This document shows positions 4,923 through 43,840 of a DNA stretch of 64,000 bases, one piece after another. The position numbers and the translations under genes are program-made. Source of the stretch: an uncultured delta proteobacterium (GTDB lineage: Bacteria > Desulfobacterota > BSN033 > UBA1163); the NCBI GenBank assembly GCA_963827685.1, contig CAWHBU010000006.1, positions 416,001 to 480,000 on the forward strand, written 5' to 3'. Each line of letters starts with the position of its first letter. The stretch's first letter is position 1. The notes under the pieces are model-generated. The model searched no databases. It worked only from the letters and a program-made list of their open reading frames with translations, and had not been told where the DNA came from.

Positions 4923-6269
4923 GTGCCGAAAGCCCTCCTGATCCATTCAACTGAAAAATCGCTCGTGGTGGCCGAGCAGCCTGTCTCGGTCTTTCCGGTC
5001 TTGGGGGTGATTACGGTGGCAGCCCTCTTTCCCGAGAGTTGGGAAGTAAATATCGCCGACGAAACCATCGAGGAGATCGACCTCGACCGGAAGGTCGATC
5101 TTGTAGGTATCTCGACGCTCACCCTCAATGCCTGTCGTGCTTATGATCTGGCAGATCATTTTCGCAATAAAGACATACCTGTTTTGATGGGGGGCATGCA
5201 CCCCTCGGCCCTGCCGGAAGAATCTCTCCAGCACGCTGATGCCGTTGTCGTGGGTGAAGCAGAAGGGGTATTCCATCGCGTTCTTTCGGATCTGGGAAAC
5301 GGCAGGATGAAGGGGATCTATAAGAGTGAGGAGCTTCCGGATATTACGAAAGTGCCGCACCCGCGATTTGACCTCCTTCATCCCAAACACCGCCGTTTCA
5401 TCCACTCCGTCCAGGCCACGCGCGGTTGTCCTCATGACTGTGATTTTTGTTCCGTCACTCCCTTCTTTGGACACAGATACCGTCTGAGACCCGTCGAGGA
5501 TGTCATCCGTGACCTCCGGACTTCCCTCGAACAGGCCTCATCGAGAACGGTCTTCTTCGTTGATGACAATATCGGCGGCAATCCCCCTTATGCGAAGGAA
5601 GTCTTTCGAGCCCTCATCCCTCTGAAGATAAAGTGGGGAAGTTTTGCTTCTGTAGCGTTCACAAGGGATCGTGAATTGATCGACCTCGCCGTAAAATCTG
5701 GCTGTATCGAGCTCTTCATCGGCTTTGAATCTATCTCCCAGGAAAATCTGGACACCTCGCACAAATCCTGGGTCCGAGCGGATCGGATGACGGAGTATAT
5801 CAAGATCTTCCACGACCACGGCATCATTGTTGAGGGCGCATTTATCTTCGGCCATGAAAACGATCGAAAAGATATCTTCCGGAAGACAGTGGATTTTGTC
5901 CAAACGGCCGGCATCCAGGTTCCTGTATTCGGTATCCTCACTCCCTACCCGGCTACCCGCCTGAGAGCTAAACTGACCAATGAAGAGAGGCTTTTACCCG
6001 AGTCCTCCAATTGGCGGCTCTACGACGGTTCCCATGTCCTTTTCAGGCCGGCCCATATGTCGCCCGAAGAACTGGAGGAGGGATTCCTCTGGGCCAAGAA
6101 ATATTGTTCGGCACCGCGCTCGGTCTTCAGAAGGATGTTCCGAGCGCCGAGGACTCATTGGCTTACAGCTCTGGGACTCAATTTTTCGATGTATTTCGGC
6201 AGGACAAAACAGATCAGAGCGCGTTGGCCTCGCTCCAAAGGACGATTGGTCCGGCCAGGGACATGGTAG
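4923..6269 (+). CDS. B12-binding radical SAM protein
   Basis: GGMHPS...GEAE cobalamin-binding domain; TRGCPHDCDFC. Confidence 0.9.
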   Translation: MPKALLIHSTEKSLVVAEQPVSVFPVLGVITVAALFPESWEVNIADETIEEIDLDRKVDLVGISTLTLNACRAYDLADHFRNKDIPVLMGGMHPSALPEESLQHADAVVVGEAEGVFHRVLSDLGNGRMKGIYKSEELPDITKVPHPRFDLLHPKHRRFIHSVQATRGCPHDCDFCSVTPFFGHRYRLRPVEDVIRDLRTSLEQASSRTVFFVDDNIGGNPPYAKEVFRALIPLKIKWGSFASVAFTRDRELIDLAVKSGCIELFIGFESISQENLDTSHKSWVRADRMTEYIKIFHDHGIIVEGAFIFGHENDRKDIFRKTVDFVQTAGIQVPVFGILTPYPATRLRAKLTNEERLLPESSNWRLYDGSHVLFRPAHMSPEELEEGFLWAKKYCSAPRSVFRRMFRAPRTHWLTALGLNFSMYFGRTKQIRARWPRSKGRLVRPGTW

Positions 6270-6336
6270 TGCGGGATTCCTCTCCGGATCGAGGAATGCT
6301 GGATGGGGTCACTTGTCTTCAAGCGGAGGTGAATCT

Positions 6337-6723
6337 ATGGCAGTTCGTATCGTGCAACTCGGAAGTCCCCGTAGAAGCGGCGAAGGGCTGCGCATTGGCA
6401 CAGTTCGGCGCCCACCAAGAGGCGTGCCCAAAAACGAGTTTGCATCGCGCAATTACTATGATGTGTGGCTGCCTAACCTCGCGCCCAGCGACCAGCTTCT
6501 CAAGGCCGGACGAGCAGCTAAAGACGAGACCGATTGGCGCTCTTTCATCAAACGCTACCGCTCGGAAATGAGCCGAGCAGAGAACAGCCGGGTTCTTGAT
6601 CTGCTCGCTGCGTTATCGCACCAAGCGAATTTTTCGGTCGGATGTTATTGCAATGACGAGCAGCACTGCCATCGCTCAGTGCTTCGTCAACTCCTCGCCG
6701 AGCGTGGTGCTTCGCTCGCCTGA
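6337..6723 (+). CDS. DUF488 family protein
   Basis: RIGTVRRPPRGV, DVWLPNLAPS, CYCNDEQHCHRS; GGAGGT RBS. Confidence 0.85.
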   Translation: MAVRIVQLGSPRRSGEGLRIGTVRRPPRGVPKNEFASRNYYDVWLPNLAPSDQLLKAGRAAKDETDWRSFIKRYRSEMSRAENSRVLDLLAALSHQANFSVGCYCNDEQHCHRSVLRQLLAERGASLA

Positions 6724-6814
6724 GTGAGTAGGCAATCGTAGAATAGAAAGAGGGAAGGTTGCTGTGTTTTTGACTCTACATTCTACACTCCGCATTCCGC
6801 AATCTAAATTCTGT

Positions 6815-7561
6815 TCAGACAATTCCCCCATCGACCACGATCGTTTGGCCGGTGATGTAGTTTGAATGTTCTGATGCCAGAAAGAGAACAGCCTGTGCAA
6901 CTTCCTCCGGTTTCCCGATCCTTCCGAGGCTGGAGGATTTAATGATCGCCTCGACTTTCTCCTTGGGCATTTTGGACACCACTTCCGATTCGATCAAGCC
7001 TGGGGCCACCGCATTCACATGGATGTTGAAAGAACCCAATTCTCGAGCAAGCGACTTTGTAAAGCTGATCATCCCTCCTTTGGTTGCCGCATAATTGGCC
7101 TGTCCTGGAGTGCCCATCATCCCGCTGATGGAAGAGATATTGATGATCTTCCCTCTTCTCTGCGGAATCATCTTTCGAATCACGATTCTGCAACAATGGA
7201 AAAGACTGGTCAGATTTGTCCTGAGCAGAGATTCCCAATCCTCATCACTCATCAACATGAGGAAGTTATCCCGGACGAGGCCCACATTATTAACCAAAAT
7301 ATCAATCTTCCCATATTGAGCAAAAGTCTCTTCCACCATCTCTTTTACCTGATCGAACTGTGTGACATCCGCTTTAAACAGACCGAGGCTCAGGCCTCTG
7401 GATTTGGCTTCCTTCTTGAGATCTTCTGCGGCATCCACATCCTTTGAAAAATTGGCGACAACCTTTGCCCCCTGCTCGGCAAAGAGGAGACAGATCGCCT
7501 TTCCGATCCCTTTCGTTCCGCCTGTGACAATGGCTACCTGATTTTCCAATAGCATCTTCAT
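6815..7561 (-). CDS. fabG: 3-oxoacyl-ACP reductase (SDR)
   Basis: [19 protein letters not shown]. Confidence 0.9.
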
Positions 7562-7574
7562 CCTCCAATTTTAA

Positions 7575-7735
7575 GAAATTCGGAATCCGAATATCGAAAT
7601 CCGAAACAATCTCAAAATTCAAATCACCAAAATGTTGAAATCTTTCCGCGTACGTGTTTAGGATTGGGTGCTTTGGTCATTCGAATTTGTTTCGAGTTTC
7701 GAATTTCGTGCTTCGAATTTCAAATCCCAAATTAA
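7575..7735. repeat. Inverted heptamer tandem arrays
   Basis: TCCGAAT/TCGAAAT/CCGAAAC run followed by complementary ATTTCGA/TTTCGAA run. Confidence 0.7.
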
Positions 7736-7751
7736 AACACAAGCCAAGGGG

Positions 7752-9152
7752 TCACTTTAGTTCACTTAATGGTCTTATTCTTGGTCTTTTCATTCTTCCC
7801 ACTAATGCCCACAAGGGTCCTCGGATTCGAAATCTTCGTATTTGCTCTATCAGATTTTGCGTGATGTTGATCTCCAATCCGGGCACGATCCACCGCTTTC
7901 TCGCAAGGGCTTTCTCCTGAATGATTTTGCTCAGTCTTCCTCCCAGTTTCGGCGAAATATAAAAATGAGGATAGATGAGATCAGAATCCTGACGGATGAC
8001 CCCTTGAGAAAGGGAGATTCGCTCCATTTCCGTTCCCGGATAGATTCGGATACCCAACATGGTAATGACCGCCGTGGGATCGAGTTGATCCATCAAATGG
8101 AAAGACTCTTCAATCGTCTCTTCGTCTTCGCCTGGCCCTCCGAACAGGAGATAGTGGCACTGATTCACCATCAATTTTGAACAGATTTTTGAGGATTGGA
8201 TGATATCCTCCTGAGTGAATGACTTCTTATAATTCTCAAGCATCCGCGGAGACCCTGAATCCGTTCCGAATTCGATCCCATCACACCCGGCCTCTTTCAT
8301 CCAATGTAATAGCGTCTCGTTCAGAAAACTCGGGTTAACAAAAGCACTCCATTTGACATCGATCTTTTTCCGAACTATGTCACGGCATAAAGCTTCGGCA
8401 TCGGAGGGTGGATAATTAAAAATGTCGTCAACAAAGTAGACGTAATCCACTCCCTCCTCCACGAGGTGTCGAATTTCCTCTACCACCTCATCCGTCTTTC
8501 TCAGCCTGACCTTTTTCCCTTCTAACAAAGGGTAAGTGCAGTAGATACAGGAGAAAGGGCAGCCTCGCTTCGTCTGAATATTTCCCATCCCTCCTTCTTC
8601 TAAATAACGGTGCGTTTCGAAGAAACTCCGATCAGGATCCTGGATGGGAAAGACCCGAGCTCCTTCTATCAAAGGAGGAAAAGGCTTCTCTTTAATAAGG
8701 ACATTAGGAGATGGGGAGATGGAGTCACCCTTTTCAAGACTCCTCACTAATTGCAGGAAGACTTCTTCCCCTTCTCCTACAATCCCAAAATCGACATCTA
8801 AATGTTGAAGAAGCTCCTTGGGGGCCAAAGAATATCCCGACCCTCCGATGACCAATCGTGATGAAGTGAATTGACGACAGATCCCAATGACCTCCTCCAC
8901 CCCTTTGAGATAAGAGATGGAGGTCGGATAGGTGAGATTATCGAGATTTCTCAGGGAGATGCCGATCAGGTCGGGTTGAAAGCGATGAAGGGTGTTGTTG
9001 AGATCAACCGGTACCTCTTGAGAAAAACAGAGGTCGACGACTTCAATCGGATGGCCTTCCTCTCTTAATGCCTTGGCGATGTAAGCCAACCCCAGAGGAA
9101 AGACAGGAAAAGGCATCCTCTCACGGTTGACGGAGATGAGGAGAATTTTCAT
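7752..9152 (-). CDS. Lipid biosynthesis B12-binding/radical SAM protein (resembles ladderane-cluster family TIGR04072)
   Basis: MKILLISVNRERMPFPVFPLGLAY, GISLRNLDN, QTKRGCPFSCIYC. Confidence 0.8.
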   Translation of the reverse strand: MKILLISVNRERMPFPVFPLGLAYIAKALREEGHPIEVVDLCFSQEVPVDLNNTLHRFQPDLIGISLRNLDNLTYPTSISYLKGVEEVIGICRQFTSSRLVIGGSGYSLAPKELLQHLDVDFGIVGEGEEVFLQLVRSLEKGDSISPSPNVLIKEKPFPPLIEGARVFPIQDPDRSFFETHRYLEEGGMGNIQTKRGCPFSCIYCTYPLLEGKKVRLRKTDEVVEEIRHLVEEGVDYVYFVDDIFNYPPSDAEALCRDIVRKKIDVKWSAFVNPSFLNETLLHWMKEAGCDGIEFGTDSGSPRMLENYKKSFTQEDIIQSSKICSKLMVNQCHYLLFGGPGEDEETIEESFHLMDQLDPTAVITMLGIRIYPGTEMERISLSQGVIRQDSDLIYPHFYISPKLGGRLSKIIQEKALARKRWIVPGLEINITQNLIEQIRRFRIRGPLWALVGRMKRPRIRPLSELK

Positions 9153-10536
9153 AAGGAAGTTCTTTATCTTTGATCCTTCGAATCACCTCCATCTGGGCAC
9201 CCCGTAGGACGAAGTTTGACATCAAGAAATAAAAGAAGTGATGCCTGGGGCCCCAGACCAGGCGTTTTAATATGGATCGAGGGGCGCAGGTATATTTCTG
9301 TGCCCAGAGGTATCCGTCTTGGAGTTCCTGGACGGTCATCTTTTTGGGCTCGAAGACCACATGACTCATGTCATAATGGGACCAGTCACGGTTGAAGATC
9401 CTCCCTTCTTCCTCCAATCGCTTTTGGAGGGGAGTTCCCGGAAAGGGGGTGAGAATGGAGAAGGTGGGAAGTTCGATATTGTTCTTCTGAACAAATTCGA
9501 CCGTTTCTCTAAAAACGTTTGGTGTATCTCCGTCGAATCCAAAGATGAAAGAACCGTGAATTCCTATTTGGTGGTCCTGAATTCTTTTGATCCAATTTGA
9601 TAATTCTTTCGCATTCACAAATCGTTTTGAAACGCCGTCCAGATTCTCCTGAAGAAGAGACTCAAAACCGATGAAGAGGGAAATACAGCCGCTCTCTTGA
9701 GCCTTCTTGAGAAGCTCCTCATTCGTGGCGATCTTGATGGTCGTAAACCCCATCCACCTGACTCCGTGATGTTTAAAGATATCGAAGAGGCCACGGGCAT
9801 AGTCCTCTTTTGCCGTCACGTTGTCATCCGCTAAAAAGAGATATTCCCCTTTCTTCTTGATGATCATGGAGAGTTCTTGATCCACTTCCTCAAGGGGGCG
9901 GAGCCGATAACGCTTCCCATTGATGATCGGAACAGAGCAAAATTCGCACCGGTTCGGACAACCCCGGGTGGTTTCGATCGCTTTAAAGAAGGGACGGTAA
10001 TGTTTGCTCAGAAGATCCCGCCTGGGAAGGGGCATCCCATTTAAATCCGCCCACTCTCGATTTTTATAAAAAGGTTTGAGTTCCCCTGCCTCAAAGTCTT
10101 GCAGAACTTTCTCAAACATCCGCTCTGCCTCTCCGACAAAGACGGAATCAGCATGCTCCTTTGCCTCCTCGGGCAAATGGCTGGGGTGGACGCCTCCCAA
10201 AATTACTTTGACTCCCCTCTCACGAAAACGATCCGCAATCGTGTAGGCTCTTTTTATCACGCAGGTCAGACCGGTGATCCCTACCAAATCAACATCGGCG
10301 TTGAAATCGACCTTTTCAATCGCCTCGTTAATGATCTTAACCTCATAGGCTTTGGGAAAGAGAGAGGCGAGAAGGGTGAGGCCTAATATGGGGAAAGGGT
10401 AAAGTGCGTCATTAGAAAACTTAATCCCTTTCTCCCGAGGAAAGATAAGAAGAACCTTTTTGGAAGACGAAGTTCGGGGTTCGGAGTTTGGAGTTCGGAG
10501 TAAAAACCCAATATCTTCTTTTTCTTTCCTTTTCAT
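9121..10536 (-). CDS. B12-binding radical SAM protein
   Basis: GGVHPS...GEAE, TTRGCPNRCEFC; paralogous to 4923-6269; start uncertain because it lies in a heptamer repeat region. Confidence 0.88.
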   Translation of the reverse strand: MKRKEKEDIGFLLRTPNSEPRTSSSKKVLLIFPREKGIKFSNDALYPFPILGLTLLASLFPKAYEVKIINEAIEKVDFNADVDLVGITGLTCVIKRAYTIADRFRERGVKVILGGVHPSHLPEEAKEHADSVFVGEAERMFEKVLQDFEAGELKPFYKNREWADLNGMPLPRRDLLSKHYRPFFKAIETTRGCPNRCEFCSVPIINGKRYRLRPLEEVDQELSMIIKKKGEYLFLADDNVTAKEDYARGLFDIFKHHGVRWMGFTTIKIATNEELLKKAQESGCISLFIGFESLLQENLDGVSKRFVNAKELSNWIKRIQDHQIGIHGSFIFGFDGDTPNVFRETVEFVQKNNIELPTFSILTPFPGTPLQKRLEEEGRIFNRDWSHYDMSHVVFEPKKMTVQELQDGYLWAQKYTCAPRSILKRLVWGPRHHFFYFLMSNFVLRGAQMEVIRRIKDKELPYENSPHLRQP

Positions 10537-10613
10537 TATTGCATTCCGTGTTCTGTTTTCTGTTCTCAGCTTTAAGATTGATCTCCGAACTCCGAACTCA
10601 TGACTCCGAACTG

Positions 10614-12032
10614 TTAATCCATATTCGGTTGTTTCCAGGGCCTCTTCGTTGCATTCTCCCAAACATAGCGGAGGATGAGCCGGTAGGCCATTCGTTTGAA
10701 AGGATTCGGGTTGAAGAAAGCACCCAGGAGGATCCTCGGTTGGGTGTAATATTTTTTCAGATAGACCTGTTGGAGATGATGAACCTCCTCAGCAGATAAG
10801 AAATTCGTATTCACGACAGGGTGCATGAAATCATATTTACCCAAATCCCTTTCCCGAATCCTCCTCAATCGTTCTGCCTCTTCAAAGTATTTTGTTCCGG
10901 GAAGGGGCGTAGTCAGGGTGAGGACCAAGAAGTCGCTCTGAGACTTGACAAATTGGAAAACCTGCTTGATCGTCTCCTCGGAGTCATTCCAATCTCCGAC
11001 CATGATGTTGGCCATGACCATGATCTTATTTCTTCTGAGAATATCAATGGCCTTCTGGGCCATCTCTCTGGATTGATGTTTTTCATATCGGTCGAGCACA
11101 TCGGGCTGGATGCTCTCGATTCCCAGCATCACTTCATACAGACCGAGCCGCTTCATCTCAGGAATGAGATCTTCATCTCGAAGGATATCCTTGATTCGGG
11201 ATTGAAACCAGAAATGGATACGAAGATGTGACTTCCCCAATTCGTCAAGAAACTCCTCCACCCGCTTCCGACTCCAGTTGAAGGTATTCTCGTTGAAGAC
11301 AAAGAGGGTTTTGCCGTATTGACGGTGTAGATGGGAAATCTCCTCCACGATCTTCTTGCCGCTCCGTCCCCTCCAGACCCCTTCCCAGAATCTGGACTCA
11401 GAACAATAAGCGCATCGATCCCCACAGCCGCGGCTAGTAGAAAGGCCAAAAGTCCTTCTCCCCATTCCATGCCAGTAGTAAGCCTCTTTCTCCATATCAA
11501 TGAGATGGTAGGCTGGAAGAGGAAGGGAGTCTAAATTTGGAATGGGAGGTTGCCTTTCGTTGAGAACGACTTTTCCATTCTCCCGATAAGCGATACTTTT
11601 TACTCCTCTCCCTTTGCCACCTCTAGATAGGTCCTGAAGGAATTGAGAAAAGGCGATCTCCCCTTCGCCTAAGACAATGCAGTCCAGTTCCTTCAACTCC
11701 TGAAGGATGGTTTCGGCCATCAGGGTGAAGTGGCTTCCTCCTGCTACGATGATGGAATTTGGCGAAAGTTTTCGACAGAGACGAATGGTCTGAATGGCCT
11801 CCGGCGAGAGGCAGGTAGCAGAACAGGTGATGCCGATGACATTGGCTCTGGATGTGGAAACGGCAGTCTCAAGATCTTTCCAGGGGGCCGGAAGAGCAGT
11901 GGCATCAATGATTTGAACTTCGTTCCCTTCTCTTTCTAAATAAGCGCCTAATTGGAGGAGACCAAAAGAAGGGGTCCACATCCGAAGGCCTGGAAAGAGT
12001 TTATGCGGCGGATCGATCAGAAGAACCTTCAT
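10614..12032 (-). CDS. B12-binding radical SAM protein (BchE-like)
   Basis: GGSHF...GEGE, SRGCGDRCAYC, TPLPGT. Confidence 0.88.
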   Translation of the reverse strand: MKVLLIDPPHKLFPGLRMWTPSFGLLQLGAYLEREGNEVQIIDATALPAPWKDLETAVSTSRANVIGITCSATCLSPEAIQTIRLCRKLSPNSIIVAGGSHFTLMAETILQELKELDCIVLGEGEIAFSQFLQDLSRGGKGRGVKSIAYRENGKVVLNERQPPIPNLDSLPLPAYHLIDMEKEAYYWHGMGRRTFGLSTSRGCGDRCAYCSESRFWEGVWRGRSGKKIVEEISHLHRQYGKTLFVFNENTFNWSRKRVEEFLDELGKSHLRIHFWFQSRIKDILRDEDLIPEMKRLGLYEVMLGIESIQPDVLDRYEKHQSREMAQKAIDILRRNKIMVMANIMVGDWNDSEETIKQVFQFVKSQSDFLVLTLTTPLPGTKYFEEAERLRRIRERDLGKYDFMHPVVNTNFLSAEEVHHLQQVYLKKYYTQPRILLGAFFNPNPFKRMAYRLILRYVWENATKRPWKQPNMD

Positions 12033-12040
12033 ATTTTCTT

Positions 12041-12141
12041 GTAGCGCCCCCATTGATTGGGGGCGAATGTTCTCGTCGGCATTAAATGCCGACGCTACAT
12101 GAATTTTATTAAAAAACGTAGCCCCCCATTTACTGGGGGCG
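12041..12141. repeat. GTAG-family REP cluster downstream of the RAYT gene
   Basis: GTAG-CGCCCCCA..TGGGGGCG, inverted CGTCGGCA..TGCCGACG-CTAC, third copy at 12118. Confidence 0.85.
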
Positions 12142-12143
12142 AA

Positions 12144-12650
12144 TCAGAGATATCTTTTTATCTCCACATCGAACGATTCACTATATGGATAGTCACCTGC
12201 ATTCTCTACAATGCCTTTTCTAACCGGGTTATTCCGAATATACTCGATGACCCCTTTCAAATTTTCCTCTGTTCTGATGACATGGTCAAAAGCAGATTTT
12301 TGCCATACCTTCTTTAAGTCTTTCCTTTCCCTGAAGACTGCCGTTGTTCTCCCTTTAAAAATATTCAGAAATTTGGACAGTGGAAGAGTCGACTCGCCGG
12401 GAGATACGATAACATGGAGATGGTCAGGCATTAGGCAATAACATAGCATTCTGAATCTAACATCTTTTGCTGCTTTTAATAGTTCATCGATCACAATCTT
12501 CGCATTGATCTCTGAATCAAAAATATTTTTCTTATTATCCATGCAGACGGTCACATGGACAGGTCGATCTTTTGAATAATCATAATTGGGTAACCTATTA
12601 GAACGGCTCTTCCTCCATGTTTTATATTGTTCCTTAGCTTTTGTTTCCAT
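12144..12650 (-). CDS. REP-associated tyrosine transposase (RAYT/TnpA-REP, Y1 HUH)
   Basis: YCLMPDHLH (HUH), WQKSAFDHVIR, YIRNNPVRKG; flanked by REPs. Confidence 0.9.
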   Translation of the reverse strand: METKAKEQYKTWRKSRSNRLPNYDYSKDRPVHVTVCMDNKKNIFDSEINAKIVIDELLKAAKDVRFRMLCYCLMPDHLHVIVSPGESTLPLSKFLNIFKGRTTAVFRERKDLKKVWQKSAFDHVIRTEENLKGVIEYIRNNPVRKGIVENAGDYPYSESFDVEIKRYL

Positions 12651-12655
12651 GCTTT

Positions 12656-13132: not shown

Positions 13133-13133
13133 C

Positions 13134-15357: not shown

Positions 15358-15358
15358 T

Positions 15359-16729
15359 TTAACCCCCGAAGTAGTCTCTTAGAAAACCAAGAAGCGTCCG
15401 GATACCCAAACGATGTTTCTTGATGTGATGCCAGATGTCCTGAATCGCCTTTTTCGATCGGGTATAGTAAAGGAGATGCGCCTTGAGCAGAAGCCATTCC
15501 ATTCGAATAAAAGAGAGATGATCGTGTTTGAAAACCAAATGCTGCATATCAAAGAAGGACCAGGGCGATCTCCATTTGAAGATCCGGTCCTTCACCTGCT
15601 GATAGATGGCTGTTCCCGGATAAGGGGTGAGGATGGCGAACTGGGCCACATTCGTATCGAGCTGTTTCGCAAAACGGATGGTGTCATGGATCGTCTTGAC
15701 GGTATCATGGAGCCCTCCCAGGATATAGGAGGCATGAATTTCCAGGCTATTCCGTTTTAGCATCTCTACAGTCCGAACGGTTTCCTCCACATCTATCCCC
15801 TTTCTCAACTCTTCGAGGGTTCTCGGACTGGAGGATTCCACTCCGATGAAAACCGATTTTGCCCCTGCCCTGACCATCTCTTTAACCATTTCTTCATTTC
15901 GAAGCAGGAGGTCTATCCTGGATAGGCACCACCACCAGAGGTCAAGTTTCTTTTCAACGATCCCATGGCAAATTTCAATCACTCTCTTCGGAATGAGGTT
16001 AAAGGTGTCATCCACAAAGGCGACGGCATTAAAATGATATCGGTGATAGACCTCTTCGAGTTCCTTTAAAACAGAGGCCACACTTCTGGCCCTAATTTTT
16101 GTTCCCCAAAAATGGGAGGAAGCACAAAAAACACATTGATAGGGACACCCACGGCTCGTGATCAAAGGGGTGATGGGGCGGTCTCCAATTTTTGTCCTTT
16201 GATAATCGTCGATATGGATGAGATGTCTGGCAGGAAGGGGGAGACTGTCGAGATTTTCAATGAAGGGTCTGGGAGGGGTTCGGACAAGTTTTCCGCTTGA
16301 AAAGAAACTGATTCCCTGGATCGAATCGAATTGACCATCTTTCTTCTCTAAAGCAGCGACCAATGCCGAAAAGGTAACCTCCCCTTCTCCTCGGACGATG
16401 AAATCAACCCTTTTGGTCGCAAGGATTTCTTCATCCACATAGCCGGGGTGTGGCCCACCTATCACAACCGTGCAACCGTTTGCCTTGGCTCTCTTAGCTA
16501 ATTGGAGAGCCTGACGATGGCGGGTCGTATCCGTGGAGATGCCGACCAGGTCATATTTCTTAAAATCGATCTCCTCCTTCTTCCTACGAACAGCCAAATC
16601 CCTGACCACAACCTGCTGTCCGTCCCTTTCCGCATAAGCAGCGACATAGAGAAGGCCAAGAGGCGGAAAAAGAACCCCTGTTGCTTTCAGAGTCCCTGTG
16701 GGAGCAGGATTGATTAACAAGATATTCAC
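15359..16729 (-). CDS. B12-binding radical SAM protein
   Basis: PPLGLLY, GGPHP..GEGE, TSRGCPYQCVFC, TPYPGT. Confidence 0.9.
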   Translation of the reverse strand: MNILLINPAPTGTLKATGVLFPPLGLLYVAAYAERDGQQVVVRDLAVRRKKEEIDFKKYDLVGISTDTTRHRQALQLAKRAKANGCTVVIGGPHPGYVDEEILATKRVDFIVRGEGEVTFSALVAALEKKDGQFDSIQGISFFSSGKLVRTPPRPFIENLDSLPLPARHLIHIDDYQRTKIGDRPITPLITSRGCPYQCVFCASSHFWGTKIRARSVASVLKELEEVYHRYHFNAVAFVDDTFNLIPKRVIEICHGIVEKKLDLWWWCLSRIDLLLRNEEMVKEMVRAGAKSVFIGVESSSPRTLEELRKGIDVEETVRTVEMLKRNSLEIHASYILGGLHDTVKTIHDTIRFAKQLDTNVAQFAILTPYPGTAIYQQVKDRIFKWRSPWSFFDMQHLVFKHDHLSFIRMEWLLLKAHLLYYTRSKKAIQDIWHHIKKHRLGIRTLLGFLRDYFGG

Positions 16730-16782
16730 AGGAAAAATCCTTCAAGAATTATTTGATCGCCAGCTTTGCATCGCATGGCGTC

Positions 16783-16910
16783 CAAAATCCCAAATTACAA
16801 ATCTCAAACAAACTCCAATCCCAAATATCGAATGATCGAAACCGATTTTGCTTTGAATTTGGAATTTGAGTCATTGGAGCTTATTTGTTATTTGGTGCTT
16901 GGGATTTGGT
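16783..16910. repeat. Inverted heptamer tandem arrays
   Basis: AAATCCC/AAATTAC/AAATCTC run followed by TTGGAAT/TTGGTGC/TTGGGAT run. Confidence 0.75.
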
Positions 16911-16935
16911 GCTCTTCCTCGCTACGCTTTCTGCT

Positions 16936-17892
16936 CTATGCTTTCTCGGAAAGCCGATACCGCTCGCAGAGGTCTCCCCAGCAGGCCACCACTTGATGGT
17001 CCACGAGAAGCTCAATCACCTCACATTGATTTCCACACTCCCCGCAATCAAATCCCCGTGTAGAACAGGACTTTCGGAGAAGGTCAAATCCCCTAAATTG
17101 GGTTTTGGAGAGTTTGGCCCTTTTTACCAATTTAGCTGCGCCGATAGCACCCATGACATCGAAATCTTTCGGAATGACGAGAGAGACATCCAGTTCCCTT
17201 TCGAGCGCTTTTCGGATACCTCGATTTGCTGCGACGCCGCCTTGGAAGACAATGGGAAAGAGGATTTCTTTCCCCCGGCAGACATTATTCAGATAATTCT
17301 TCACCAGGGAGTCACAGAGGCCAGCTACGATATCCTCAACAGAATGTCCGATCTGTTGCTTATGAATCATATCTGTCTCGGCAAAAACCGTGCATCGTCC
17401 CGCGATCCGGACGGGGTGATGGGCCTTGAGAGCAAGATCCCCAAAGGCTTCGATGGAGATCCCGAGTCTGGCGGCTTGTTGATCTAAAAAAGATCCTGTG
17501 CCTGCTGCGCAGACCGTATTCATGGCGAAGTCGACCACAACGCCATTTCTCAGCACGATGACCTTGGAATCCTGCCCACCGATTTCGATGATGGTCTTTG
17601 CCTCGGGGAGAAAGTCAATTACGGCAATGGCATGGGCGGTAATCTCATTTTTGATCAGATCGCCCCCCACCAAATAGCCGGCCAAATGTCGGGCGCTGCC
17701 GGTCGTGGCGACTCCGTCGATGGGAACGGCTTTCCCTAATTGAGTCAGGATTTCCTCCATCCCTTGCTGAATGGCTTCAATGGGCCGGCCACTGTTGCGA
17801 ATATACGACTTGGCTAAAACTTGGTCGTGTTCGTTCATTACCACCAACTTGGTGGTAATGGACCCGACATCAATGCCTAAATAATTTGCCAT
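16936..17892 (-). CDS. Acyl-CoA dehydratase activase (BcrAD/BadFG ATPase), PlsA/Ger-like activation module
   Basis: GIDVGSITTK, EIGGQDSK, MNTVCAAGTGSFLD, RCTVFAE; C-terminal CGECGNQC...GDLCERY. Confidence 0.9.
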   Translation of the reverse strand: MANYLGIDVGSITTKLVVMNEHDQVLAKSYIRNSGRPIEAIQQGMEEILTQLGKAVPIDGVATTGSARHLAGYLVGGDLIKNEITAHAIAVIDFLPEAKTIIEIGGQDSKVIVLRNGVVVDFAMNTVCAAGTGSFLDQQAARLGISIEAFGDLALKAHHPVRIAGRCTVFAETDMIHKQQIGHSVEDIVAGLCDSLVKNYLNNVCRGKEILFPIVFQGGVAANRGIRKALERELDVSLVIPKDFDVMGAIGAAKLVKRAKLSKTQFRGFDLLRKSCSTRGFDCGECGNQCEVIELLVDHQVVACWGDLCERYRLSEKA

Positions 17893-17903
17893 GGTAAGAA
17901 TTT

Positions 17904-17987
17904 GTAGCGCCTCCATTTACTGGAGGCGAAATCCTAAAATCCCGTCGGCAATACCTGCCTGCCGGCAGGCAGGAATGCCGACGCTAC
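17904..17987. repeat. GTAG REP doublet with nested CCTGCCTGCCGGCAGGCAGG palindrome
   Basis: Same REP family as at 12041 and 12656; 20-bp palindrome at 17954-17973 sits in the loop of the second REP. Confidence 0.85.
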
Positions 17988-18002
17988 TCTATTTGAACTT
18001 TG

Positions 18003-19082
18003 TCATTTACCATTAATTTGAGCTTTGACATTTGAACTTCGTAATTTCTTCTGCTCTTCCATCACATCCCGGAACGCCTCCAATCGGGTGGTCAACCCTT
18101 CCCTTCCCGTATGCTCATCGAAAGAGAGAATGAGAAGGGGGATGGATGAGCCACCCCGAACTTTCAACCTTCTCTTGATGAATTCTTGAAGGAGGGCATC
18201 AATGCCACATTTAAAGGAAGTGAGGAAGACCGCCCCATCCACTCCACCGGATAGAAAGTGAAACAGAGACCCCACAATCTCTCTTCCGGATGACCAGTAA
18301 ATCTCTTTGGAAAGGTCAGAAACTTCCCGATCGATTTCCTTTTCAGAGAGGAAATCGGAAGTCGTGATCTCCATCCCTAAACTTTTCGCCAGGGCGAGGA
18401 GATCTTTGTTAATATCGATGTCAAAGAGATTGTAAGGATGGCCGATGAAAGCGACACGCAATGGACTTCCAATTCCTTTCCCTCCCCTTTTTACTGCTTC
18501 CCCCTCCCCTTTATCCCCTCCCACCAAGGGAGGGGAAATTTTGGAGGGAGGCGGTGTGGAAACATCCATTTCAAAGAGTTGCCCGGTGGGAAGTTGGTTG
18601 ATTCGATCCATCCAGTCTCTTTGAAATTTGTTGAAAGAATGCTCCGCCTCTCGAAAGGCTTTCTTGCTCTCCTGCCTCGATGCGCCGAGCCTTTCACCGA
18701 TCTTTAGAAAAGTCTGAAGGAGGGACATTCCCCCTTTTCGAAGATCGATGGTTTCGTCAATGACGGAAACATTTTCTCCCGTGGCAAGCCGCACAATATC
18801 CGGAGCTCCCCGAAACTTTGGACACATGATGTAATTTCGATGAACGCTGACTAATCGAGGGACAAAAAGATGATCCACCTTGTCTTTCAATTGAACGGCA
18901 TGCGTGATCAGAAGTTTCATCGGAAGGCAACTGTCTTCGAAATAGATGATCTTCTCCTTCTGTCTTACCCCGTCGGAAATCATCACCTTCCAACCCAACC
19001 TTTCAAAGAAGGGTCGCCAGAAGGGAAAGTAACGATAAAACATCAGGGCCCTGGGAATGCCTACGCAGCCCTTCTCTTCCAT
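18003..19082 (-). CDS. DUF2229 acyl-CoA dehydratase activase-related protein (reductase module 1)
   Basis: VGIPRALMFY, CLPMK, MCPKFRG, GHPYN, FKCGID, DEHTGREGLTTRLEAF. Confidence 0.85.
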   Translation of the reverse strand: MEEKGCVGIPRALMFYRYFPFWRPFFERLGWKVMISDGVRQKEKIIYFEDSCLPMKLLITHAVQLKDKVDHLFVPRLVSVHRNYIMCPKFRGAPDIVRLATGENVSVIDETIDLRKGGMSLLQTFLKIGERLGASRQESKKAFREAEHSFNKFQRDWMDRINQLPTGQLFEMDVSTPPPSKISPPLVGGDKGEGEAVKRGGKGIGSPLRVAFIGHPYNLFDIDINKDLLALAKSLGMEITTSDFLSEKEIDREVSDLSKEIYWSSGREIVGSLFHFLSGGVDGAVFLTSFKCGIDALLQEFIKRRLKVRGGSSIPLLILSFDEHTGREGLTTRLEAFRDVMEEQKKLRSSNVKAQINGK

Positions 19083-20161
19083 TCCAACATCTCCACGAAG
19101 GCCTCAAGGAGTGTCTGAATGCGGCCTTCGATTTCTTGCTCGTCTAAAATGAGAGTGAGGATAGGAATGTTCCAATCCTTTCCGACTTTTGTCAGGATTC
19201 CTGAAGCCGTGGTCTCCGGCATGCAGGCAAATGGCATGAGATGGACGATCCCATCGTATCCTTCTTTGGATCTCAGGATGGCCTCACCGATGGAGACATT
19301 ACATTCTGCACCCACATCGTAACCCAGATAAGCCTTGGAAGCTTCGAAGAAACGAACCCGTTCTGAAGCTTGATCAGCCTTATTTTTCCGAAGGCTCCTC
19401 AGGATATGCGTGGAGAACCAAGAGGTGCGCGTCACCTCCACGCCCAATTCCCCCAATTTTTGTTCCACTCCTCGATTGATATGGGGATCCATCACCGTGT
19501 AAAGTTCGCCCACAATGGCCACTTTAAACGGGATGCGGGAATGATCTTGCTCCATTTCTTGAAGAAGGACCTTTGCTTCCCGAACCGCTTGTTCAACGGC
19601 TTTCGGATTTTTGGCCTCATCCACCCAGGAGAGCGCCTTCTTCAATCGCTTCTGAGCCTCCCCTTTCTTGATCTCCATGGGCCTGACCTTCATGGTCAAT
19701 CGCTCCAATGCCTCGCAGGCCATCATCTTCTTCCACCCCATCCAAAGTCCGTAAGGGAAGAAGAGGACGTTTTTGGCACTCAATTCTTTTCTCAGCTCCT
19801 TCGTCTCTTCATGATTCTTCCACATGGCCTGCCAAGTCAACCGAGGTGGAATGGTCAGCCATCGATAATGGAGACCCATATCTTCAAGGATGATTTTCTG
19901 GACAAGGTCATAGAGTCCCAGACGACAGGGAGGGCCACTGCCCACCATCACAATGGTATCCGCTCCCATCTGAAGGGCTTCGATGAAATTCCCTAGGATG
20001 AGTTTGAAAGGAAGACAGATACACTCATTCGAGTGGAGGACACCCAGGGTCAGAGTTTTTCGGCTGGTTTCAGGGGGAACAATATAGGGAATGCCGGCGG
20101 TTTCTGCAATCGCCTTGCAAAAGATGTGCATCGAACCCAGATGAGGAAAAGTTACCTTCAT
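19061..20161 (-). CDS. 2-hydroxyacyl-CoA dehydratase-like / PlsR-like protein (reductase module 2)
   Basis: MKVTFPHLG, CLPFKLILGN, PCRLGLY, VGELY, PFACMPE, LEAFVEML. Confidence 0.85.
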   Translation of the reverse strand: MKVTFPHLGSMHIFCKAIAETAGIPYIVPPETSRKTLTLGVLHSNECICLPFKLILGNFIEALQMGADTIVMVGSGPPCRLGLYDLVQKIILEDMGLHYRWLTIPPRLTWQAMWKNHEETKELRKELSAKNVLFFPYGLWMGWKKMMACEALERLTMKVRPMEIKKGEAQKRLKKALSWVDEAKNPKAVEQAVREAKVLLQEMEQDHSRIPFKVAIVGELYTVMDPHINRGVEQKLGELGVEVTRTSWFSTHILRSLRKNKADQASERVRFFEASKAYLGYDVGAECNVSIGEAILRSKEGYDGIVHLMPFACMPETTASGILTKVGKDWNIPILTLILDEQEIEGRIQTLLEAFVEMLEWKRRAA

Positions 20162-21555
20162 CCATGTTTACCCACTACCTTTTTCCTTTCTGAAAGGGGC
20201 TGAGGGTTTAGACCCTCCACTTTTCCCCTCCAGGCAGCCTCTGCAATCTCTCCATAAGTTTTGGCGTAGCTATCGATGGCCTGTGCAAAATCCGTAAAAA
20301 GCTGATCTGCCCCTTCATGGGTAAAGTATTTCGCATGCTGAAGGGCAATTTCCCTACCCTGTTCAGGGTGATCGATCAGAGGACAGGCCCGAAATAAGTT
20401 CTCCGAGAAAGGCTGGCGTGATCGCATTTCCCTGAATAGAGGAGAATTGAGAGCCTCCATGAGAGACTTCTCTTTGATATTGTCAGAGGCAAAATGGCAA
20501 AAGATGCAGGGCTCCACATCCCCGCGGGCATTGACATGAAAGTATTTCCTCCCCGCTGCGATGCATCCCTGAGTGAGACATCCATCATTCCAGAAGTCAA
20601 CGAATAGCATGGGTTTGGTGGCCCGAAAATAGGCGAGCCGCTCCCTCGCCCGGCTCCTCTGTTCAGGAGTCACCATGAGGGAAAGATCGGGGTTTCTTCC
20701 GATGGGGACATAATGGAAGTTCCAGAGAAGAATGCATCCCTTCTCTACCAGAAAATCGACAAAGGCATCGCTCGTCAGGACATCATGATTTCGGGAAGTC
20801 TGTGTCGTGGAGACAGCAAAAAAGATCCCAGCTTCTCTGAGCCCATCCATCACCTGCAGGATTCGATCGAACTGGCCCTGACCCCTTCTCCCGTCGGTTT
20901 CTTCTCTGAGCCCTTCGAGGCTGATCGCGGGAGCGACATTTCCCAGAGCCACAAATCGATCGATCATCTTCTCGTCGATCAATGTGGCGTTGGTATAGAC
21001 TTGGAACATCATATCTTCATGCTTTTCGAAGAGGTCGAAAAGATCCTGCCTCAAGAAGGGTTCTCCACCCGTCATCATGACCAGATGAATGCCCATCTCC
21101 TTACATTCTCCCATTAACCGATCCAGCACCCCGTAAGGAAGATCCTCGTGGGAATAGACCCCTGAATAACATCCATAGCAATTCAGATTGCACCGCATCG
21201 TCGGGCTGATCAACATGGCGTCCGGCGGATAGAATCCCCTCTCTGCCTCAAAGGCCTTTCTCCGGTTGGTACCTACCAGAAGCTGGTTAATGATGAAGTT
21301 GGAGATGAGCTTTTTCCGATGATGGGGGTGTGTCTCGCTGAGCACTCTTCGCGCAATCGCCAGACCAGGATGATCACTTTGGAAAAGAGTGCGAATCCAT
21401 CGAATCTTTTCTCGATAGGATTCCTTTTGAGGAATTTTCTCTGCAAGATGGGTCAGGCGAATCAAATTTTCTGTGGAGGCGTTGGCCAGAAGAGAAAGAG
21501 CGCTCGTCGTGAATTTTCCAATGGAATATCGCTTAGCCCGTTGATAAAAATCCAT
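20158..21555 (-). CDS. Radical SAM protein with SPASM/twitch domain
   Basis: ISPTMRCNLNCYGC, GGEP, DFWNDG, GCIAAGRKYFHVNARGDVEPC, ACPLID. Confidence 0.88.
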   Translation of the reverse strand: MDFYQRAKRYSIGKFTTSALSLLANASTENLIRLTHLAEKIPQKESYREKIRWIRTLFQSDHPGLAIARRVLSETHPHHRKKLISNFIINQLLVGTNRRKAFEAERGFYPPDAMLISPTMRCNLNCYGCYSGVYSHEDLPYGVLDRLMGECKEMGIHLVMMTGGEPFLRQDLFDLFEKHEDMMFQVYTNATLIDEKMIDRFVALGNVAPAISLEGLREETDGRRGQGQFDRILQVMDGLREAGIFFAVSTTQTSRNHDVLTSDAFVDFLVEKGCILLWNFHYVPIGRNPDLSLMVTPEQRSRARERLAYFRATKPMLFVDFWNDGCLTQGCIAAGRKYFHVNARGDVEPCIFCHFASDNIKEKSLMEALNSPLFREMRSRQPFSENLFRACPLIDHPEQGREIALQHAKYFTHEGADQLFTDFAQAIDSYAKTYGEIAEAAWRGKVEGLNPQPLSERKKVVGKHG

Positions 21556-21563
21556 CTTCCTCC

Positions 21564-22244
21564 TCACCAAAACAGACTTCGAAGAAAAAGTTTACAGACC
21601 ATCCAGGTATCGACCACTGGCCTGAAATGGCTGGAACCAGTTCCATCGACCCTTGGTGTATTAATAGGAACAGATAACACACTGAACCTCTTTTTGCAAG
21701 CTTTAATAAGGAGTTCCAATTCTGTCTCAAATCGGGAGGTCGAGAGGTCGACTTTTTTCAGTACTTCTGTCCGAATCAGTCTAAAACCCGACTGACTATC
21801 CGTAATGTCTGCGTGGCAAAGCCGTGCGACGGCCTTCACCCCCAAACGATTCCAGAAGCGACGGAGGAAGGTCATCTTCCCAAATTCTGTAGCCCGAGAG
21901 GCAATGAGGATATCAGGTTTGACGCTTTTGAAAACCTTAAGAAGGGATGGAATTTCTTCAGGATCATGTTGACCATCGGCATCCAGAGTGATGACCACCT
22001 CATAGTCTTTTTGGAGGATATATTGGAATCCCGTCCGGAGGGCAGCACCCTTCCCAAGATTGAGGGGATGCTCCAGGAGTCGGGCTCCATGTTCTGAAAC
22101 CACTCTCTTCGTCTCATCCGAAGATCCGTCATCGACAACAATGATATCCCCCTTCAGAGGTTCAATCTTTTTTAAGACAGAGCCAAGAGTCGCCTGGGCG
22201 TTATAAGCAGGGATGAGGACACAGATCTTCTCTGACCGCTGCAT
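21564..22244 (-). CDS. Glycosyltransferase family 2 (DPM synthase-like)
   Basis: IPAYN, VDDGSSD, NLGKGAAL, LDADGQH, DSQSGFR, SHFRP. Confidence 0.9.
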   Translation of the reverse strand: MQRSEKICVLIPAYNAQATLGSVLKKIEPLKGDIIVVDDGSSDETKRVVSEHGARLLEHPLNLGKGAALRTGFQYILQKDYEVVITLDADGQHDPEEIPSLLKVFKSVKPDILIASRATEFGKMTFLRRFWNRLGVKAVARLCHADITDSQSGFRLIRTEVLKKVDLSTSRFETELELLIKACKKRFSVLSVPINTPRVDGTGSSHFRPVVDTWMVCKLFLRSLFW

Positions 22245-22294
22245 AGAATCTATTGCTTCCGATTTAAGATAACTGTCATATCTTGACCCACAAA

Positions 22295-22430
22295 GCACCA
22301 AATTCCAAGTACCAAGCTCGAAATAAATCTCAATAACCAAAATTCCAAATTCGAAACAAAATTATTTCAGTCATTGGGTTTTGCTAATTGGGATTTGTTT
22401 GTGATTTGCGATTTGGAAATTGGAATTTTC
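22295..22430. repeat. Inverted heptamer tandem arrays
   Basis: AAGCACC/AAATTCC/AAGTACC run followed by TTGGGAT/TTGCGAT/TTGGAAA run. Confidence 0.7.
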
Positions 22431-22493
22431 GGCCCCAGCCTCTCCGAATCTGCATTTTCGTTCTAACATTTTATGCATCGATTGTTAAGGGCA

Positions 22494-23791
22494 TCACCTT
22501 CTCTCTAAAAATCGTTTCATCTCTGCATCATAGAGAAAGGTGAAAAAGGTTGCAACCGATCCAAGTAGTGGAAGCGGATCATCTCTTGAAAATATATCAT
22601 AGGAGGTATTGGGGTTAGAGAAATCAAAGAAGGGGGGATGAAGATGAAAACGATTGGGATTGTTTAGAAAATGGAGAATATCACCCAACAGGAGCCAGCG
22701 ACAGCGCTTCCCCACTTCATAGTGACGTATGGGTTCGAAACTTTCTCTCCTGGCCATCCTCAAAATAAGGTAGGGAAAATCGACTCCAGAAACAATGGCC
22801 AGTTGCAATGAACCCCAGAAACGGGGATTGAGTTCCATCAGTTTCGGGATTCCATCCCTTGGGTCCACTTTGAATTCAACCATGCCCACGCCGACCCAAT
22901 TTAATGATTTAAGGAGGGAGAGACCTAACTCCATGATCTGAGGATGTTCAACCGCTTCCCGCAATGTGCTGGGACCTCCTTGGACTGGATACATCCTCAA
23001 CTTTTTGTGGACAAAGGCCGCTTTCATGTTCGAAGCCTCGTCAAAAAGGGCAGAGAGCCCAAAGGTCCCCGCTCCATCGGGAATCCATTCCTGAATTAAT
23101 GGAAGAGGATATCGGGCATGGACGCTTTGATAAGAGGAGATGAGATCCTCTCTTTTTTTCACATAGACAATGCCAAAGGAACCGGAGCTAATCCGTGGTT
23201 TAACCACCGCCGGAATTGGAATAGAAGAAAGACTTCCCCCCTCACCCTCCCCTCTCCCACCAGTCGTTGCGACTCGAAACCGAGGGGAGAGGGATAGAGC
23301 ACCGCTGATTCCTCCCTCTTGGAATGGGGGGGAGACTGGCTTCCCTTCCCCTCCCCCTCGAGGGGGAGGGTGCGGGAGGGGGGGACATAAAATGTTCTAG
23401 GGGTAGGAATACCTATTTTCTCCGCAAACCGTAAAAGATTTCCTTTATCCCGAACGAATTCAATCTCTTTCAAATCAGGAATGAGGAGGTAAGTATATTC
23501 AGAGATTTCAGAATGATATTTTGCCAATAAAAGCAGAGTCCCCTCTTCCATCGGGAAGAGGCAATCGTAGTGGTTCTCTCTAATCTCTCTTAGAAGAAAT
23601 TCGATAAATTGATTTGGGGACTGCTGTGGCGAAGGATAGATGAGGCGCCTGGTGCAATATTTCGAAAAGAAGGAGGTATTCAGGAATGTCCGCTCTCCAA
23701 CTGTGACACGAACCCCTTTCCGACCAAGGGATCGAACCACAGCCAATGATTTTCTAAAGTGCCCATCCGTGACCAGAACGCGCATCTTCAT
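22494..23791 (-). pseudogene. ATP-grasp carboxylate-amine ligase, split by a frameshift inside REP insertions
   Basis: N-part RVLVTDG..AVVRSLG..DKG..GIPTP; C-part VVKPRISSGS, IQEWI, VEFK, MELNPRFWGS in a different frame; palindromes at 23235-23385. Confidence 0.8.
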
Positions 23792-43827: not shown

Positions 43828-43840
43828 CTTTCCGTTTTCC

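Follow-up and report, generated by a model that had tools for sequence, protein, structure and literature searches.

The window analyzed here, a 64,000-nucleotide stretch of contig CAWHBU010000006.1 from an uncultured delta proteobacterium, carries on its minus strand, at positions 6815-23791, a real operon of about 17 kb in which an acyl carrier protein (ACP) and other fatty-acid-synthesis proteins are encoded together with radical SAM enzymes and three reductase-like genes. We put at roughly one in two the probability that this operon is one part of a multilocus, ACP-dependent pathway for a specialized lipid, with a split, Ger-like ester-reducing trio, in uncultured Syntrophaceae-like Thermodesulfobacteriota. 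Judged by sequence, the combination is a variant of the known, uncharacterized class of aryl-polyene (APE) or "ladderane-like" type II clusters and not a stand-alone unit, and new relative to that class is a dedicated module predicted to be a split form of the Ger/PlsA type. The window genes were classed by open reading frame (ORF) listing and by Pfam and NCBIfam profiles, the sources of the curated cut-offs given below, and both profile sets bore out the run of genes that a first-pass annotation had listed, in its order and with a further B12-binding radical SAM gene facing it convergently:

23791-22494, minus strand: ATP-grasp ligase, whole gene, as two overlapping ORFs in different frames
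23159-23791, minus strand: ATP-grasp N-terminal half (NF005315 positions 4-137)
22494-23207, minus strand: ATP-grasp C-terminal half (PF15632, 38 bits; PRK12767 models over ~148-309)
21564-22340, minus strand: GT2 glycosyltransferase of the polyprenyl-phosphate-sugar synthase type (PF00535, 94.3 bits)
20158-21570, minus strand: SPASM radical SAM enzyme with a 110-residue N-terminal extension (PF04055 and PF13186)
19061-20161, minus strand: DUFa, DUF2229 protein with an HGD-D tail (PF09989, 47.4 bits, above the cut-off of 29.4)
18003-19082, minus strand: DUFb, DUF2229 protein with a variable low-complexity loop (PF09989, 134.8 bits, above the same cut-off)
16936-17916, minus strand: activase with a single BcrAD_BadFG domain and a Cys4 tail (TIGR00241, 203.3 against 125.4)
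15359-16729, minus strand: B12_1, B12-binding radical SAM enzyme, BchE/HpnJ-like (PF02310 and PF04055)
14446-15357, minus strand: LpxL/PatA-type acyltransferase with an N-terminal hydrophobic stretch (PF03279, Lip_A_acyltrans, 122.3 bits)
14054-14326, minus strand: ACP of the ApeE type with a GLDS attachment motif (NF006617, 74.1 against a cut-off of 70)
13134-14057, minus strand: FabD-like acyl/malonyl transferase (PF00698, Acyl_transf_1, 63 bits)
12710-13189, minus strand: hot-dog thioesterase, 4HBT/YbgC-type (PF13279 and PF03061; TIGR00051, 64.9, just under 68.7)
12144-12668, minus strand: REP-associated tyrosine transposase (RAYT; NF047646, 106 against a cut-off of 80)
10614-12053, minus strand: B12_2, B12-binding radical SAM enzyme, BchE-like (BchE, 243.3 against 481)
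9121-10662, minus strand: B12_3, B12-binding radical SAM enzyme of the DUF4070 subfamily (PF04055, PF02310, and PF13282)
7752-9152, minus strand: B12_4, B12-binding radical SAM enzyme (TIGR04072, 392.6 against 360)
6815-7561, minus strand: FabG, 3-oxoacyl-ACP reductase, the final gene of the run here (TIGR01830, 300.9 against 297.75)
4923-6269, plus strand: B12_5, convergent B12-binding radical SAM enzyme, 43% identical to B12_3

The conservation of gene order goes far beyond chance. A scan of species-representative genomes with DUFb gave 31 loci, all in metagenome-assembled genomes labeled Thermodesulfobacteriota, Syntrophaceae, Syntrophorhabdus, or delta proteobacterium, and the genes present follow the window order in 31/31; presence counts given below use the loci that hold both flanking genes. 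The same run occurs in six genomes of the organism's own family, four of which span GT2 to FabG. DUFb has 716 database relatives, of which the best 120 are 76-90% identical. Within a phylum sample of 301 genomes (G000 is the organism's own genome, other G numbers are relatives, and f13 and f25 are other families), DUFb was matched in 15, including 6/9 of its own family, 4/4 of f13, and 1/1 of f25, and the B12_4-FabG pair stays adjacent even in f13. The first-pass annotation had staked its reading on gene order being kept in relatives, and this is what we found. GC content is even across the cluster region.

The curated cut-offs were reached by the activase, ACP, FabG, RAYT, and B12_4, and the FabD-like protein, thioesterase, LpxL-type acyltransferase, GT2, SPASM enzyme, and remaining B12 enzymes have superfamily matches without a curated equivalog. 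The FabD-like protein scored 154.8 bits against TIGR00128, under its cut-off of 260.9, and contains an HSMG stretch; the LpxL-type protein contains HLGNWE and had a PIM acyltransferase as its top NCBIfam model (112.5 against 209); and the top NCBIfam matches of the GT2, AglJ and PpgS, were each far under their cut-offs. The SPASM enzyme missed all NCBIfam cut-offs (top NirJ2, 106.5 against 500), and a solved-structure search with it returned generic relatives only. Each of the six radical SAM enzymes counted at the outset carries one copy of the CX3CX2C motif, at residue 127 in the SPASM enzyme and residue 210 in B12_2. HpnH, HpnJ, HpnP/HpnR, and BchE, which share the B12-binding plus radical SAM architecture, were the top named models for B12_1, B12_2, and B12_3, and none of their cut-offs was reached (best window scores of 183.6 against 577.6 for HpnJ, 49.2 against 225 for HpnH, 147.9 against 650 for HpnR, and 243.3 against 481 for BchE; B12_1 scored 192.6 with BchE and 183.6 with HpnJ). 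The likeness to TIGR04072 that had been noticed earlier held for B12_4 only, with B12_1, B12_2, B12_3, and B12_5 at 86-120 bits and under every curated cut-off. TIGR04072 exceeded its cut-off in 55 of the 301 phylum genomes, in two score classes of ~560-670 and ~360-430 bits, and its score places B12_4 as a peripheral member in the lower class.

The convergent enzyme B12_5 is present at the locus, as first described, and is not a conserved neighbor; its membership in the pathway is not supported. It has at least five paralogues (35-45% identity), was matched in one of five same-genus genomes (G330, on another contig), and was not seen after FabG in loci L047, L050, and L018.

The split reductase-like trio and its fused relative

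By alignment, the trio of DUFa, DUFb, and activase groups with PlsA/Ger enzymes of the DUF2229 type and not with the HgdAB-type dehydratases. The genome has three DUF2229 matches only, namely, DUFa, DUFb, and a fused frame at C1:93892-98145, which gives 1411 residues from its first start codon and in which Pfam, run on a 1217-residue part, recognized DUF2229 and two BcrAD_BadFG stretches. The comparison with PlsA/Ger was made against this fused paralogue from the genome itself, and by BLASTP the trio lies end to end on it, which bears out the split PlsA/Ger-like reductase proposed in the first-pass annotation. The activase has 49-50% identity with each of the two activase domains in the fused protein, DUFb corresponds to residues 687-994 in the first catalytic half (26% identity, E of 4e-27), and DUFa corresponds to residues 1016-1397 in the second (24% identity, E of 8e-27). 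Across 14-15 sequences, DUFa has the invariant cysteines C49, C79, and C313, which pair with C1063, C1098, and C1354 of the fused protein, and DUFb has C52, C87, and C292, two of which pair with fused-protein cysteines, C87 being offset by six residues from C778 in the pairwise alignment. The cluster cysteines and Cys4 tail of the activase also align with the fused protein.

A model of the DUFa-DUFb complex scored 0.87, against 0.00 for the best control; that mark was attained by 116 of 157 solved complexes but also by 2 of 215 mismatched pairs, and given that HgdAB and BCR complexes are already solved, the high score may partly be likeness to those. At least 98% of the contacts were common to three runs, the partner pLDDT was at least 84, and the modeled interface covers the conserved-cysteine segments. 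A grouping with amino-acid-fermentation dehydratases, the outcome against which the proposal had been set, was not observed: PF06050 (HGD-D) matched only 60-residue tails of DUFa (300-359, 24.8 bits) and DUFb (280-339, 19.5 bits), under the cut-off of 28.4; neither protein matched any of the genome's four HGD-D pairs; and two full-length HGD-D proteins of a relative had no BLAST match to any cluster protein at an E of ≤1. Among solved structures none was near DUFb, and DUFa gave only tails at an E of 0.07; atlas look-alikes of DUFa were stand-alone DUF2229 proteins, mostly from Bacillota and without a functional name.

The trio has in common with PlsA/PlsR and Ger the activase and DUF2229 domains, the HGD-D-like tails, the conserved cysteines, and the Cys4 tail. 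The layout differs, given that PlsA/Ger proteins, like the fused copy in this genome, carry two activase domains and then DUF2229 in one polypeptide, whereas the trio consists of three genes in the order DUFa-DUFb-activase and has one activase domain rather than two. It is only 24-26% identical to the fused copy in the catalytic halves and is a second, dedicated copy inside a biosynthetic operon. According to the available text of the Ger study, the layout of two activase domains plus DUF2229 is conserved in all confirmed alkyl-ether producers, and DUF2229 proteins with tested function reduce glycerol esters (PMC13159169).

Extra paralogous activase-DUFb-DUFa sets occur in three relatives (L051 on G186:C19, L068 on G156:C5, and L069 on G011:C149). 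The set in G186 is doubled and stands with SPASM, LpxL-type, SRPBCC, and B12 genes, and the set in G011 follows LemA and DUF2207 genes and precedes phosphoesterase, YegS/DAGK-type lipid kinase, and MFS genes. From the paralogous cluster in G186 we had considered SPASM-activase-DUF-LpxL-B12 as a conserved core, which was dropped given that the trios in G156 and G011 are without those neighbors.

Ketosynthases, the partner locus, and known cluster classes

The cluster was first described as ketosynthase free, which is true of the window and not of the genome. None of the genome's 20 PF00109 matches lies inside the window, and Pfam found no FabA/FabZ domain in the cluster ORFs; the genome's nine strong ketosynthase (KS) genes are all outside. 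A KS stands directly past FabG in three relatives (G186, G090, and G011), beginning 8 nt past it in G186 with a length of 400 residues. In two others (G328 and G330), it shares the strand of FabG and lies some 7 kb past it. The orthologue here (G000:C4:104267-105475), a FabF-type KS 74-78% identical to those of the first three, has unrelated genes and an IS200-like gene as neighbors and contains the active-site-like stretches TACSSS, AHGTGT, and GHCLG. This dedicated KS was found as a full-length orthologue in 21 and as a partial one in 4 genomes of a 41-genome family sample. The local lack of a ketosynthase comes from rearrangement.

The search of the whole genome for a partner ketosynthase locus, suggested earlier as a check, found in addition to the C4 gene a locus on C6, about 105 kb from the window cluster, with KS, chain length factor (CLF), FabZ, and methyltransferase genes. 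Given the KS past FabG in relatives and the link to the KS/CLF-FabZ-methyltransferase locus, we class the operon as a variant of the cluster class named above, and its earlier description as a stand-alone tailoring unit was not borne out. MT286, the marker methyltransferase of the partner locus, has no close solved relative by structure search; it was found in 19 of the 301 phylum genomes, all 15 DUFb genomes among them, counts that come from related genomes, are not independent events, and include three DUFb matches that are either weak or against fused proteins. Three genomes of the organism's own family without DUFb (G124, G216, and G274) are also without TIGR04072 and MT286 and gave only FabF-like KS matches, at 42-46%. 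No ACP gene was found at C6:294-317 kb by BLAST with the cluster ACP.

In family f13, the DUFb orthologue (45-47% identity) heads a KS-CLF-FabZ-methyltransferase operon in the order DUF2229-KS-CLF-small exporter-FabA/Z-methyltransferase-two unknown genes-B12 radical SAM-methyltransferase-LolA; the orthologues of this operon in the present genome make up the C6 partner locus. In G126 the set is spread over four loci, namely, ATP-grasp-GT2-SPASM-DUFa; ACP-FabD-thioesterase-B12_2-B12_3; the DUFb-KS-CLF operon; and two HGD-D genes plus B12_4-FabG. Orthologues of DUFa and the ACP (66-72% identity) are kept in 5/5 of the f13/f25 genomes searched. Four further families have genes from the two loci intermixed at a single locus. 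The partner locus, its surroundings, and arrangements in relatives are as follows:

C6:308995-317391: partner locus, with genes for an acyl-CoA dehydrogenase, a CLF-like protein, an exporter, a FabZ-like protein, two methyltransferases, a KS, and a KS-like protein
C6:294581-301758: near the partner locus, two phytoene-desaturase-like genes, a DUF4070-type B12 enzyme, and an SDR
G074: B12_1-LpxL-B12, then MT286-FabD, then ATP-grasp-B12_4-KS-like-KS, then SPASM
G170: ACP-thioesterase-GT2-KS-KS-like-B12_4-MT286-SPASM-B12_3-exporter-methyltransferase-KS-CLF-desaturase-like
G162: FabG-ACP-FabZ-like protein, then GT2-MT286
G252: the run of G162 plus ATP-grasp, a B12 enzyme, and LpxL
G169: B12-DUFb-DUFa adjoining MT286
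G147: MT286, then a fused DUFb/DUFa-like ORF, then an activase

At G170:C30:93586-95765 (locus L063), a TIGR04072-like B12 radical SAM gene and an MT286-like methyltransferase gene lie end to end and, apparently occupying a single open frame of 855-893 residues, may be fused.

APE clusters combine KS/CLF and FabZ with accessory LpxL-type, GT2, thioesterase, and FabG-type proteins. The operon shares with these type II clusters the ApeE-type ACP, the LpxL-type acyltransferase, the GT2, the hot-dog thioesterase, and the FabG-type reductase, and it differs in that the KS/CLF pair and FabZ are encoded in trans, that five radical SAM enzymes, an ATP-grasp enzyme, and the Ger-like trio are added, and that the pathway is split over several loci. 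APE clusters have KS/CLF, dehydratases, and aryl-starter enzymes in the same cluster, whereas the window has no KS or dehydratase. It also has no LolA/MMPL export genes, and no aryl-starter enzymes were seen in it, although no search was aimed at them. The top solved relative of the ACP was 9ls6_A (61.1 bits, against 38.9 for the next), which is ApeE of an Acinetobacter APE cluster, described in the available part of its source as carrying an aroyl starter (PMC12624758). By this comparison, the cluster ACP is placed closest to ApeE.

The FabZ of the partner locus scored 115 bits with ordinary FabZ and 85-90 bits with structures that we take to be anammox FabZ. Parts of the set are like those of the anammox or "ladderane" clusters (Cluster I, KustE3603-3608, and the Rattray 2009 clusters of K. 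stuttgartiensis and D. psychrophila), namely, a dedicated ACP, FabZ, an active and a CLF-like FabF, a phytoene-desaturase-like protein, a B12 radical SAM enzyme, and a TIGR04072 member, here split between the window and C6:294-317 kb. As far as the consulted portions of the sources go, anammox Cluster I consists of ACP, FabZ, FabF2/FabFmut, a desaturase-like protein, and a B12 radical SAM enzyme (bioRxiv 10.64898/2026.05.19.726425), the anammox cluster is syntenic with one in Desulfotalea, where ladderanes were not detected (PMC2649909), and "ladderane" clusters of unknown role have been mined in Desulfobacterota and other phyla (PMC9902471). Rattray 2009 does not use the terms activase, 2-hydroxyglutaryl, or benzoyl-CoA, and nothing in the operon points to a ladderane product. 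The first-pass annotation did not recognize the combination as a characterized pathway, and the literature searched agrees, with no characterized cluster matching the operon, no match for the term TIGR04072, and DUF2229 matches (the Ger study included) that do not concern it. A 2026 review of lipid-modifying radical SAM enzymes lists, in its available sections, Tes, Mss, Gms, Grs, Gmm, Cds, the Hpn enzymes, Jaw5, and ladderane candidates and no system like the present operon (PMC13459092).

Proposed chemistry and alternative readings

Gene content, conservation, homology, co-occurrence, and neighborhood are established here, and the chemistry, ether formation included, is what we infer. In the proposed pathway, malonyl units would be loaded on the ACP, ketosynthases would extend the chain, and FabG and FabZ would process it, with SAM methyltransferases and B12 radical SAM enzymes altering unactivated carbons of the chain. 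The LpxL-type enzyme would use the acyl group to esterify a hydroxyl of an acceptor, a lipid or glycolipid with a head group built by the GT2, the ATP-grasp enzyme, and possibly the SPASM enzyme. The ATP-hydrolyzing activase would then supply a low-potential electron to a DUFa/DUFb iron-sulfur heterodimer, which would convert the ester by reduction into an ether, either vinyl or alkyl, in the way that PlsA/PlsR and Ger act on glycerol esters. The operon would contribute the ApeE-type ACP, the FabD-like loader, FabG, the thioesterase, the LpxL-type enzyme, the GT2, the ATP-grasp enzyme, the SPASM and four B12 enzymes, and the split trio, and the chain-building share would be encoded elsewhere, by the C4 FabF-type KS and the C6 KS/CLF-FabZ-methyltransferase locus. 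The order of events first suggested (methylation or cyclization, transfer, reduction to an ether, glycosylation) is plausible.

Several observations weigh against this reading. B12_1 is present in 12 and absent from 11 of the 23 informative loci, the ATP-grasp gene is broken in this copy, and the co-occurrence counts are not independent, as stated above. In locus L018 the activase is followed directly by B12_2, with the trio and the downstream radical SAM genes kept and no LpxL, ACP, FabD, or thioesterase gene between them, and no acyltransferase accompanies the paralogous trios of G156 and G011. B12_4-FabG lies directly past two canonical full-length HGD-D genes in two (G126 and G218) of the three f13 genomes examined, an arrangement that hints at thioester chemistry. 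In the accessible part of one source, PlsA and Ger are not yet separable by sequence, and no role is known for PlsA homologues in which the activase domain is missing (PMC13274423). The L018 and f13 arrangements speak for an unlikely though substantial alternative, in which the pathway is the same and the trio acts on an ACP or CoA thioester during chain assembly, as a ketyl-radical dehydratase or a dearomatizing/reducing enzyme of the HAD/BCR kind. That the f13 DUFb orthologue sits in a KS-CLF-FabZ operon and not beside an acyltransferase also favors it, as does an ACP of the type of ApeE, for which an aroyl cargo is described in the part of the paper at hand (PMC12624758). Against it, the sole match of DUFa and DUFb elsewhere in this genome is the fused protein of the DUF2229 type, their HGD-D tails span 60 residues and stay under the cut-off, the partner locus already holds a FabZ-type dehydratase, and the only DUF2229 proteins with a tested function in the literature consulted act on glycerol esters (PMC13159169).

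We considered as very improbable that the operon tailors hopanoids or another polyprenoid lipid instead of a fatty-acyl chain. The genome does encode a squalene-hopene cyclase, the HpnJ and HpnR models are at or near the top of the matches of B12_1 and B12_2, and the SPASM enzyme and the GT2 weakly match HpnH and HpnB, respectively. However, the cyclase is adjoined on contig C7 by canonical HpnJ (746 against 577.6) and HpnH (523 against 225), all within G000:C7:212330-224636, so the window enzymes, which score far under the Hpn cut-offs, are not those, and the conserved set includes ACP, FabD, FabG, thioesterase, and KS. These hopanoid genes occur in a strict-anaerobe lineage. We give next to no weight to the idea that a ribosomal peptide or lipopeptide is matured by the radical SAM enzymes, the ATP-grasp enzyme, and the carrier protein: such systems often include SPASM and ATP-grasp enzymes, B12_1 and B12_2 match the C-methyltransferase model TIGR03975 of ribosomally synthesized and posttranslationally modified peptides at 101.7 bits (cut-off 281.85), and the ACP weakly matches TIGR04069, but the conserved partners are fatty-acid-synthesis enzymes, and three intergenic gaps hold only short ORFs through simple repeats and no plausible precursor, the conservation of these ORFs not having been tested.

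Returning to the multilocus lipid pathway with a Ger-like trio, a more specific version of it is a long shot. The operon and partner loci might make an undescribed ether-linked membrane lipid or glycolipid, C-methylated or cyclized several times, with the split Ger-like enzyme forming the ether on a substrate delivered by the LpxL-type enzyme, and might thereby be an anaerobic source of orphan branched alkyl ethers. If this were true, the pathway would be a possible source of lipids of the branched glycerol dialkyl glycerol tetraether (brGDGT) or branched-glycerol-ether type, which are used as climate proxies. "Ladderane-like" and APE-like clusters have been mined in many anaerobic phyla, with products known only for the classic pigments. 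The seemingly ketosynthase-free block becomes, in our analysis, one piece of a larger, shuffled gene set, defined by an ApeE-type ACP, KS/CLF, FabZ, two methyltransferases, SPASM and B12 radical SAM enzymes, an LpxL-type enzyme, a GT2, and an ATP-grasp enzyme, to which some lineages add a dedicated, predicted split relative of the ether-lipid enzymes PlsA/Ger. Carriers, uncultured relatives of sulfate-reducing bacteria, are widespread in metagenomes of peat, wetland, and freshwater sediment, which gives a lineage in which to search for ether or branched lipids, and the gene set offers concrete constructs for anaerobic expression.

Frame break, insertion, and minor features

The ATP-grasp gene reported by the first-pass annotation is present and is intact in relatives, where it is one ORF of 414-415 residues and a single frame spans both halves in 18 of the 19 that hold both; in this copy it is frameshifted. 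The break sits inside a GC-rich palindromic insert at about 23220-23380. Metagenome evidence came from four runs, as fragmentary DNA contigs of mixed strains, and one contig over 22989-23437 has zero substitutions and 22 gap positions. Given this variant in linker length, the frameshift may mark either a pseudogene or an assembly error. A second GC-rich palindromic insert inside a coding region lies at 18464-18550, in the DUFb loop, and both inserts translate to low-complexity segments rich in Pro, Gly, and Glu. DUFb ranges from 321 to 411 residues among relatives, and one metagenome contig replaces 18465-18549.

The RAYT is an insertion and not a pathway gene. Besides its match above the NF047646 cut-off, its region (12039-12714) is bounded at both ends by 61-nt REP-like direct, palindromic repeats with hairpins, at 12039-12099 and 12654-12714, a third, partial copy of which lies between DUFb and the activase at 17901-17931. 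RAYT orthologues (62-88% identity) are present at the same junction in 5/20 relatives, and position 12144 is followed directly by 12689 in two contigs from a single metagenome run, which skip 12145-12688 and so represent a RAYT-less variant.

Repeats of about 150 nt occur at 4576-4731, with inverted ends, and at 7576-7720, where the repeat fills the FabG/B12_4 spacer; genomes of the same genus have dozens of copies at 70-99% identity. The operon spacers at 10469-10612, 16845-16913, and 22294-22362 hold short periodic repeats of the TTCGGAG type and long inverted repeats, one pair of which has 69-nt arms that are 77% complementary and 5.4 kb apart, and several operon spacers vary in length among metagenome contigs. 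Promoter-like and terminator-like sites in the cluster were not above their counts in shuffled sequences.

Judged by where alignments to relatives begin, the GT2, the thioesterase, and B12_3 seem to be listed with starts too far upstream. GT2 alignments begin mostly at residue 37, so that its true start is probably near 22244, and those of B12_3 are scattered over residues 1 to 65, its true start probably lying downstream of 10662. On the plus strand, a DUF488 ORF at 5980-6723 overlaps, as listed, the 3' end of B12_5 by 290 nt; the DUF488 domain does not begin before residue 122, which makes a later true start probable. An Rfam search had no match within the cluster, and its sole match in the window was a TPP riboswitch (RF00059) at 43827-43942 on the minus strand, with 60.5 bits against a gathering score of 54.3.

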